Shown: one piece after another, positions 54 to 1,064 of the stretch
Numbering within the stretch: position 1 is the first letter of the stretch
How the letters are laid out: each line of letters begins with the position of its first letter
Source: Escherichia coli
GTDB lineage: Bacteria > Pseudomonadota > Gammaproteobacteria > Enterobacterales > Enterobacteriaceae
DNA: 1,837 nt
Assembly (NCBI RefSeq): GCF_003334355.1
Contig: NZ_QOWP01000079.1
Direction: 5' to 3' (one strand)
The notes under the pieces: model-generated
Databases searched by the model: none
What the model was told of the DNA's origin: nothing
Seen by the model: only the letters and a program-made list of their open reading frames with translations
Position numbers and translations under genes: made by a program

Positions 54-78
54 TCTCCAGGATTTCCGGGGCGGTTCA
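54..78 (-). repeat. Terminal inverted repeat (IRL) of the IS629-like element
   Basis: Plus 54..78 is tctccaggatttccggggcggttca, whose reverse complement is TGAACCGCCCCGGAAATCCTGGAGA. This matches 1761..1785 (TGAACCGCCCCGGGTTTCCTGGAGA) at 22 of 25 positions, differing only in the central AAA versus GTT. Confidence 0.7.
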
Positions 79-86
79 TTGACGCT

Positions 87-1064
87 ATGGGGGATACCCC
101 TGTCGACCTATCAAACACGGTAAAAGCTATCGACAATCAGATTGCCGTGTTAAGCCGCCCGGGCAAATCTCAGGATAGAGCCGCGGTAAAAGTCTTGCAG
201 CAATTTAAAGACGATATCACCAGCGGACCCAATGACCTGCGTCTGGCGAGAGAAAACAGAACTGACCTTCGAAAGCGGTTCATGAATTCAAACGAGACTG
301 TTGATAAAGACACGCTCCAGAAAGCCAGCGATATTGTCTACAAGGCATATACGCTGGATATGAGAAGGGCAGTAGCCCAGAAACTGGGTTCAGAAGAAGC
401 AGCCAATATGGCAAGGGTTGATCGCTCATGGTCTAAATTCAATGACATGATGGGAAGAACGCGCGTTCAAAAGGCAATAGCCAGCGGCAAGGCCACGCCT
501 GAGGATGTAACAAAACTCGTGTTTAGCCAAAGCCCATCAGAACGTTCTCAGCTTTACAGGCTTCTGGATGACAATGGTAGGCAAAACGCACGAGCAGCCA
601 TAGTTCAGAATGCTGTAGATAAGGCGACTGATCCGTCTGGAAATATCAGTGTTGAGAAGTTTATTAATGCGTTACACCGGAACAGGAAGCAATCAGCAAC
701 TTTCTTTAAAGGCGTGCACGGAAAGGAACTGGACGGCATTATTAAATACCTCAACGATACCAGACAGGCGGCAAAGGTTGACGGTCAGAAATTAAACAGC
801 CAGAAACTTTATGGCCTGCTGGTTGGTGGAGGCGCTATAAATGCGGCAGTTCTGGCGGGGATGCTGAAAACGGCTGCGTTTGTTGTTCCTGCTGCTGGTG
901 CTTTAGGCGGAGCAGCGAAGGCATACGAAAGCCCTGTTATACGAAATGCCTTATTACGTCTGGCAAATACGCCAAAAGGTAGCACAGCATATGACAGAGC
1001 GATCAGTACAGTCACACAATCACTGACCACAGCAGCACAAGCATCGCAAAAGGAAGCTCAATAA
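87..1064 (+). CDS. Hypothetical protein, 325 aa, hydrophilic N-terminal region and C-terminal Gly/Ala-rich hydrophobic hairpin (residues ~241-277); possibly 5'-truncated or promoter-disrupted by the adjacent IS
   Basis: Uninterrupted 978-nt ORF from ATG 87 to TAA 1062..1064 with protein-like composition throughout. In-frame stops upstream lie inside the IS. No canonical SD within 15 nt upstream of the ATG, which is only 9 bp from the IS terminus. By hand count, 12 of 23 Arg codons are AGA/AGG and there are 4 ATA Ile codons. No family assignment possible from sequence alone. Confidence 0.7.
   Translation: MGDTPVDLSNTVKAIDNQIAVLSRPGKSQDRAAVKVLQQFKDDITSGPNDLRLARENRTDLRKRFMNSNETVDKDTLQKASDIVYKAYTLDMRRAVAQKLGSEEAANMARVDRSWSKFNDMMGRTRVQKAIASGKATPEDVTKLVFSQSPSERSQLYRLLDDNGRQNARAAIVQNAVDKATDPSGNISVEKFINALHRNRKQSATFFKGVHGKELDGIIKYLNDTRQAAKVDGQKLNSQKLYGLLVGGGAINAAVLAGMLKTAAFVVPAAGALGGAAKAYESPVIRNALLRLANTPKGSTAYDRAISTVTQSLTTAAQASQKEAQ

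Follow-up and report, generated by a model that had tools for sequence, protein, structure and literature searches.

The stretch of Escherichia coli DNA that we have analysed (the window, 1,837 nucleotides) carries the inner ends of two IS copies with a segment of ordinary chromosomal sequence between them. The ORF listing of the window places a 325-aa ORF at positions 87-1064 on the plus strand, close to the left-hand copy. Positions 1-78 (minus strand) are the left end (IRL side, 78 nt) of an IS629/IS1203-type element of the IS3 family, 100% identical to L009:1501-1578, and the body of this IS runs leftward, beyond the window. Its terminal inverted repeat (IRL), read directly from the sequence at 54-78 as tctccaggatttccggggcggttca and assigned to neither strand, closes with CA at 77-78. 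The orfA start codon lies at 24-22 on the minus strand, with 24-1 of that strand encoding the orfA start MTKNTRFS, so that the transposase is transcribed away from the 325-aa ORF. The IS end at position 78 is followed at 79-86 by ttgacgct and at 87-89 by ATG, in exact agreement with a preliminary description of this DNA in which only these eight bases parted the ATG from the IS. The reading frame has a stop codon, TAG, at 51-53 and no start codon from there to ATG 87, which is therefore the first start that it could use.

The other side of the window (1761-1837, minus strand) is the right end (IRR side, 77 nt) of a second IS copy in the same orientation as the left one. The reverse complements of 1-78 and 1761-1837 are both 100% identical to a single 1310-bp element (L009:1501-2810), the former to its left end and the latter to its right end (L009:2734-2810); RefSeq names this element 'IS3-like element IS1203 family transposase', with a programmed frameshift. 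Membership of the IS629/IS1203 group of IS3 elements, judged by near-identity to a named reference of ~1310 bp, thus holds for both visible ends (78 nt and 77 nt), the 5'-TG...CA-3' termini of the IS3 family are present (CA at 77-78 and TG at 1761-1762), and the 25-nt arms at 54-78 and 1761-1785 form an inverted repeat with 88% complementarity. The last codons and the stop of orfB are read at 1837-1803 on the minus strand. TG 1761-1762 coincides by chance with the target sequence, so that BLAST identity to the target seems to reach 1762, and an earlier reading accordingly began the right-hand IS at 1763; with the right end of the reference element as a guide, its start moves to 1761.

IS629/IS1203 typically splits phage-related and effector genes, and what happened in the window has a direct counterpart in the reference locus itself (L009:1393-3078, from E. 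coli O157:H7 PV15-279), in which the same type of IS splits the T3SS effector gene espY2 and is flanked by a 3-bp duplication, AAG. IS1203 has been described as an isoform of IS629, which duplicates 3-4 bp at insertion (PMC3271280), and TTG at 79-81 would be the 3-bp target duplication expected of the left-hand copy, its other flank lying beyond the window, as AAC at 1758-1760 would be that expected of the right-hand copy. The elements in the window differ from the IS629/IS1203 reference in that just the inner ends of the two copies lie within it, and otherwise resemble other gene disruptions by IS629/IS1203 in E. coli and Shigella in their ends, their TG...CA termini and their imperfect 25-bp repeats, with nothing unusual about them. 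Two further observations concern the right-hand copy. A 237-aa ORF on the minus strand (1124-1837) is an artefact in which the end of orfB and the IS inverted repeat, in another frame, are fused to the upstream region of a small gene, and the IS sits, after ...GCAAC at 1760, inside the right arm of a near-perfect palindrome at 1739-1762 (CAGTTGCAAAA-AG-TTTTGCAACTG, with 11-nt arms and a 2-nt loop). In the intact alleles this palindrome lies about 220-240 nt upstream of that small minus-strand gene, and it could be an operator or a terminator.

The 325-codon ORF is the 3' part of a longer gene. Positions 79-1760 are 100% identical to uninterrupted chromosomal DNA in several E. coli strains, and a megablast search of 5,426 complete E. 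coli genomes, with the window as query, finds the inter-IS segment uninterrupted, at up to 100% identity, in about 124 of them, where the gene that runs over it is annotated as an 'injection protein' or a 'P22-gp16 family phage DNA ejection protein'. The intact gene of strain 510016 (L001) occupies 4882-6987 and encodes 701 aa. By exact mapping, position 79 of the window is gene nt 1121, the second base of codon 374 (ATA A|TT GAC GCT ATG), which puts the junction between gene nt 1120 and 1121; in the alignment to L001 (...cgcataa|TTGACGCTATG) positions 79-86 (plus strand) are the last two bases of codon 374 followed by codons 375-376 (Asp, Ala), and ATG 87 is codon 377 (Met377), in frame 0. 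The product of the ORF is identical to residues 377-701 of the 701-aa WP_097346595.1, and both this identity and the profile match described below identify positions 87-1064 as the 3' remnant, codons 377-701 and the stop, of a P22 gp16-family DNA-ejection ('injection' or 'DNA transfer') gene. When all 2106 nt of the gene are used as the query, 398 of the 5,426 complete genomes prove to have it undivided, always on the chromosome, and wherever the match reaches the 5' end of the gene a 'phage DNA ejection protein' gene is directly upstream. Hydropathy analysis shows that the fragment has a Gly/Ala-rich hydrophobic segment at about fragment residues 242-275.

The preliminary description had offered two readings of ATG 87, namely that the IS had entered the ribosome-binding site or promoter region of a complete gene, or that a larger gene had been split and the ATG is an internal methionine. 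Because the intact alleles put ATG 87 at codon 377 of 701, with the junction in codon 374 and in-frame coding sequence upstream of the ATG, we reject the former and adopt the latter. Homologues longer at the N-terminus and an uninterrupted allele in related strains were proposed there as the comparisons to make; the homologues are about twice as long, the uninterrupted allele is the one carried by the 398 genomes, and the homologues do not show full-length proteins starting at the equivalent methionine, which was the observation named as counting against a split gene.

Comparison with protein families places the intact gene among phage DNA-ejection proteins. Residues 19-700 of the intact protein match the PHROGs family phrog_770 'DNA transfer protein' (E=3e-155), and the window ORF matches the same profile (E=2e-91) over positions 325-667 of 668 only. 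The strength of this second match, together with the identity to annotated residues 377-701, argues that the 325-aa ORF is real coding sequence and has not arisen by chance, and its extent argues that the ORF is a gene fragment and not a family member in its own right. A tblastn search of 50,697 phage records returns 'DNA transfer protein' genes of P22-like phages (E down to 5e-82), with HF4s, 720R6 and PM43 aligning over residues 1-700 and P22 with 30% identity over residues 210-683 (E=7e-44); for HF4s, 720R6, PM43, BTP1 and P22 alike, the alignment crosses the position of Met377 within one gene. Full-length homologues, from P22-like phages and from islands of enterobacteria, all run through this position without a break. 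Among the 120 best homologues in a collection of 5.8 billion proteins, the full-length ones have about 650-770 aa, shorter ones are mostly labelled partial, and PF26808 Phage_P22_gp16 is precomputed on all those listed but one. Pfam-A has no significant domain for the intact protein, the library being probably an older one without PF26808, and there was no match in NCBIfam, no solved structure in a PDB sequence search, and no Rfam match in the window.

By sequence similarity, both to profiles and to the gene 16 products of P22-like phages, the ORF thus falls within the P22 gp16 family. The full-length members have about 600-770 aa and are encoded downstream of a gp20-type gene, and this description fits the intact alleles but not the ORF, which represents only the C-terminal 46% of such a gene. 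In P22, gp16 belongs to a set of three virion ejection proteins from which a conduit for DNA entry is built, and changes in gp16 that escape SieA exclusion map to its C-terminal region (PMC10461980); the P22-type role in virion packaging and the DNA conduit is a function described in P22 only, and would apply to the present gene by analogy. Met377 was also considered as a conserved internal initiation site. It is near-invariant in 19 homologues, but the whole block around it is conserved (RIINAMGDTPVD) and no SD precedes it in the intact allele, and this candidate was rejected.

The left junction is not confined to a single assembly. Exact look-up of the product located it in two independent short-read assemblies, L008 and L006. 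L008 (SRR10357312) is identical to positions 51-1790 of the window and has both IS junctions, whereas L006 (ERR4578542 and four other samples) shares only the left junction, matching the window exactly up to 1760 and continuing from there into ordinary island DNA with no IS. Since the junctions are reproduced in assemblies of independent read sets they are not assembly artefacts, and since L006 has the left insertion alone, at the identical site, the left copy must have inserted first and the right copy separately. The 41-nt left junction gave 0 matches in an exact search of a species-representative genome collection, and neither junction occurs in any complete RefSeq E. coli genome, where the best coverage of the window (92%) is that of the inter-IS segment only.

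The context of the intact allele indicates what the insertion removes. As in the P22-like phages, the gp16-like gene follows a gp20-type gene (Inj_translocase, phrog_917), and it is the last of three co-directional genes that begin with a 57-aa hypothetical protein; no gp7 homologue was identified beside the intact gene among the neighbouring ORFs other than the 57-aa one. The gp16-like ATG overlaps the gp20-like stop codon as TAATG and is preceded by GGGGTGAT, an arrangement that suggests translational coupling of the two genes. This native start is 1128 nt upstream of ATG 87, and with its SD and the overlap with the gp20-like stop it is now either beyond the IS or lost, so that native expression is disrupted, as the preliminary description had anticipated. 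That description had also reported no GGAGG-like motif ahead of the ATG, and whereas the canonical GGAGG is indeed absent, a degenerate SD-like GGCGG is present in the IS repeat (70-74, plus strand), 12 nt before ATG 87. The calculated duplex of this motif with the 16S 3' end (-7.2 kcal/mol) exceeds in strength that of 99% of the 20-mers drawn from the window and falls inside the range (-4.1 to -11.1 kcal/mol) spanned by 16 real starts of island genes, whereas Met377 in the intact allele, at +0.7 kcal/mol, has no SD. GGCGG is the only IS-derived translation signal able to serve ATG 87. Its 12-nt spacing exceeds the optimum for an SD by established spacing rules. A consensus scan showed no sigma-70-like site upstream of ATG 87 (window 1-86) and no outward promoter on either strand of the full IS copy, but the scan is crude and misses the IS's own promoter, so that its negative outcome says little about an outward promoter; nothing relevant to outward promoters of IS629 came up in the literature either. 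Transcripts of the operon that enter the IS would be antisense to its genes, untranslated for ~1.3 kb and prone to Rho termination. Judged from these sequence features, the ORF is most likely a silent, untranslated pseudogene remnant, although a low level of translation through the mis-spaced GGCGG is conceivable.

The same gene has decayed elsewhere by other means. In L003, L004, L005, L007 and L011-L017, which have no IS, gene callers report two ORFs in place of the gene, an N-terminal one of 325 aa and another that in most cases starts at Met377 and gives the very 325-aa product of the window. The split in L003, L004 and L005 results from the contraction of a T7 run to T6 at gene nt 945-951 (L003:9815-9830), about 177 nt upstream of the Met377 ATG, so that these 325-aa calls are fragments as well. 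The frameshift alleles, with their two 325-aa ORFs, therefore yield the same 325-aa product as the window, but through a 1-nt homopolymer contraction and not through an IS. Further truncation is seen in L013 and L016, in which the second ORF has 260 aa, and one RefSeq genome labels the pseudogene 'missing C-terminus'. We also note that in L017, a Logan contig of SRR30896322, positions 3266-3339 map to window 87-160 and the contig ends at the equivalent of window position 160, inside the C-terminal ORF; this end may be another repeat or IS insertion elsewhere in the gene.

These broken alleles may also have left a mark on the databases. A second PHROGs family, phrog_29117 (327 positions, 'head morphogenesis'), matches exactly residues 377-701 and is most simply explained as a family built from such gene fragments; nothing among the findings here supports its 'head morphogenesis' label. 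A third, phrog_29864 (399 positions, 'transglycosylase'), matches residues 65-411 and seems to be built from fragments too, with a doubtful label. 

The intact gene is carried in an integrative island of ~15 kb adjoining yagP-T/pao-like (xanthine-dehydrogenase-type) genes (L003:1-15800 and L001:1-12100). The island encodes AlpA, AntA, DUF4222, Phage_ASH, a Zn-ribbon/Toprim/DUF927 primase and the gp20-like and gp16-like ejection proteins, followed by variable cargo (Abi_2 or hypotheticals), PerC and PRiA4_ORF3. The setting is thus different from that of a P22-like prophage, in that the gene lies in a small island with genes for AlpA, Ash and a primase, where neither capsid nor tail genes were seen. 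A satellite-like element with only two P22-type ejection-protein genes is unusual, and we found no description in the literature of satellites carrying ejection-protein genes. Within the window the 325-aa ORF is bounded by a convergent gene (1124-1522, minus strand), not part of the split gene, that encodes a 132-aa predicted secreted protein matching phrog_2651 (E=1e-22), a family of unknown function like the protein itself. A segment resembling a signal peptide (VNQLKRLVVSGLLFASFGANA) is found at the N-terminus of this protein, which also has a C-terminal Cys. RefSeq alternates between a 132-aa start (GTG 1522, SD -11.8 kcal/mol) and a 146-aa start (ATG 1564, SD -3.1), and the GTG, with its strong SD, looks to be the right one. 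The right-hand IS is 238 nt upstream of this gene with its transposase reading in the same direction, and read-through from the IS could therefore affect it.

There are several plausible and less plausible ways to account for this arrangement. The geometry of an ATG 9 bp from the IS end might suggest a complete 325-aa gene with the IS in its promoter or ribosome-binding site, and gene callers do list the 325-aa product while phrog_29117 consists of just that fragment. We nevertheless give this reading almost no credence, since every uninterrupted allele reads in-frame coding sequence of the 701-aa protein upstream of ATG 87, the full-length homologues of about 650-770 aa are aligned across the site, the intact allele has no SD before Met377, and the IS-free loci with a 325-aa call that were checked (L003, L004 and L005) all have the T7-to-T6 frameshift upstream. 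The two IS copies, which bracket the 1682-bp segment in the same (direct) orientation, could also be thought of as a composite transposon from elsewhere, or the junction as an assembly chimera, given that IS repeats commonly break or mis-join assemblies. Either would be extremely improbable: both junctions are exact in L008 and the left one in L006, and L006 runs on past 1760 into normal, collinear island sequence, which argues for separate insertions into a collinear island and not for one mobilised unit; a segment moving as a unit between its IS copies, the hallmark of a composite transposon, is not what we see. A more credible suggestion, to be regarded as a variant of the explanation that we prefer and not as exclusive of it, is that the IS landed without functional consequence in a gene already dead, in a lineage that had the T7-to-T6 change at gene nt ~951. 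Frameshift alleles are widespread; one of them, L003, matches the window segment with 100% identity, and L006, with the same left junction, differs from the frameshifted L004 at 1 of 4245 positions. The segment is, however, equally 100% identical to the intact alleles L001 and L010, and the frameshift site is upstream of the junction, outside both the window and L006/L008; we regard a prior frameshift as possible but somewhat doubtful.

It can also be imagined that the fragment is expressed, by read-through or cryptic transcription from the IS and initiation at ATG 87 with the help of GGCGG, and that the resulting C-terminal half has some activity, for example as a membrane-active protein or in hindering incoming P22-like phages. 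The predicted pairing of GGCGG, inside the range of real island starts and far from the +0.7 kcal/mol of the intact allele, is in keeping with this proposal, as are the retention of the hydrophobic Gly/Ala-rich segment and the location of the SieA-escape changes in the C-terminal region of P22 gp16 (PMC10461980). We think such expression and activity unlikely nonetheless. The 12-nt spacing is beyond the efficient range, there is no promoter-like site upstream, the transposase is encoded on the other strand, and operon transcripts, running antisense through some 1.3 kb of IS, would lack translation there and hence be Rho-prone; moreover, the repeated independent decay of the gene by frameshift, further truncation and loss of the C-terminus argues that it is dispensable. 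A more specific form of the idea, in which GGCGG and Met377 together would provide a translatable, stand-alone C-terminal half acting as a dominant-negative or decoy against DNA entry by P22-like phages, strikes us as very improbable. If it were true, the recurrent 325-aa calls in frameshift alleles would represent a tolerated or selected product and not pure decay.

The reading that we favor, and in which we have high confidence, is that an IS629/IS1203-type IS lies in codon 374 of a 701-codon P22 gp16-family gene and that the remnant is most likely untranslated. The gp16-family gene is carried on a small phage-related integrative island in the E. coli/Shigella chromosome, where in its intact form it would be expressed as the last cistron of a unit of hypothetical, gp20-like and gp16-like genes. 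The IS629/IS1203-type element has inserted in codon 374, the window representing the downstream side of the insertion, and has cut the fragment off from its native start, SD and operon promoter; gene finders take the first in-frame ATG past the junction, internal Met377, and so arrive at a 325-codon ORF. We favor a simple insertion with duplication of TTG and with the 5' half beyond the IS, although an IS-mediated deletion or rearrangement could have occurred instead. A simple insertion predicts that the far side of the left copy should read ...CGCATAATTG and then TGAACCGCCCCGGGTTTCC..., with the 5' half present and TTG duplicated, and that the sequence beyond the right copy should read AACTGCGTCCGACC..., with AAC duplicated. 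Exact look-up found none of the predicted products of the 5' fragment and the IS (452 aa with the 3-bp duplication, or 383 aa as a contig-end partial), a homology search of the 5.8-billion-protein collection gave no match to the predicted fusion that spans the IS-derived tail, and no contig encoding the frameshift-type N-terminal 325-aa ORF ends at the junction.

The ORF in the window is an ordinary broken gene whose 'start codon' is an internal methionine, and both the components (IS629/IS1203 and a P22 gp16-family gene) and the kind of event, disruption of a phage-derived gene by an IS, are already known. In annotation, the 325-aa ORF should accordingly be treated as the 3' part of a pseudogene disrupted by an IS and not as a gene with an unusual start, the more so as gene callers and phrog_29117 already propagate the fragment as a protein family. 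The left junction common to L006, L008 and the window, together with the extra right-hand IS, provides lineage markers for IS629/IS1203-based typing. For the biology of these elements, the locus is one more case of the IS-driven decay of phage-derived islands.
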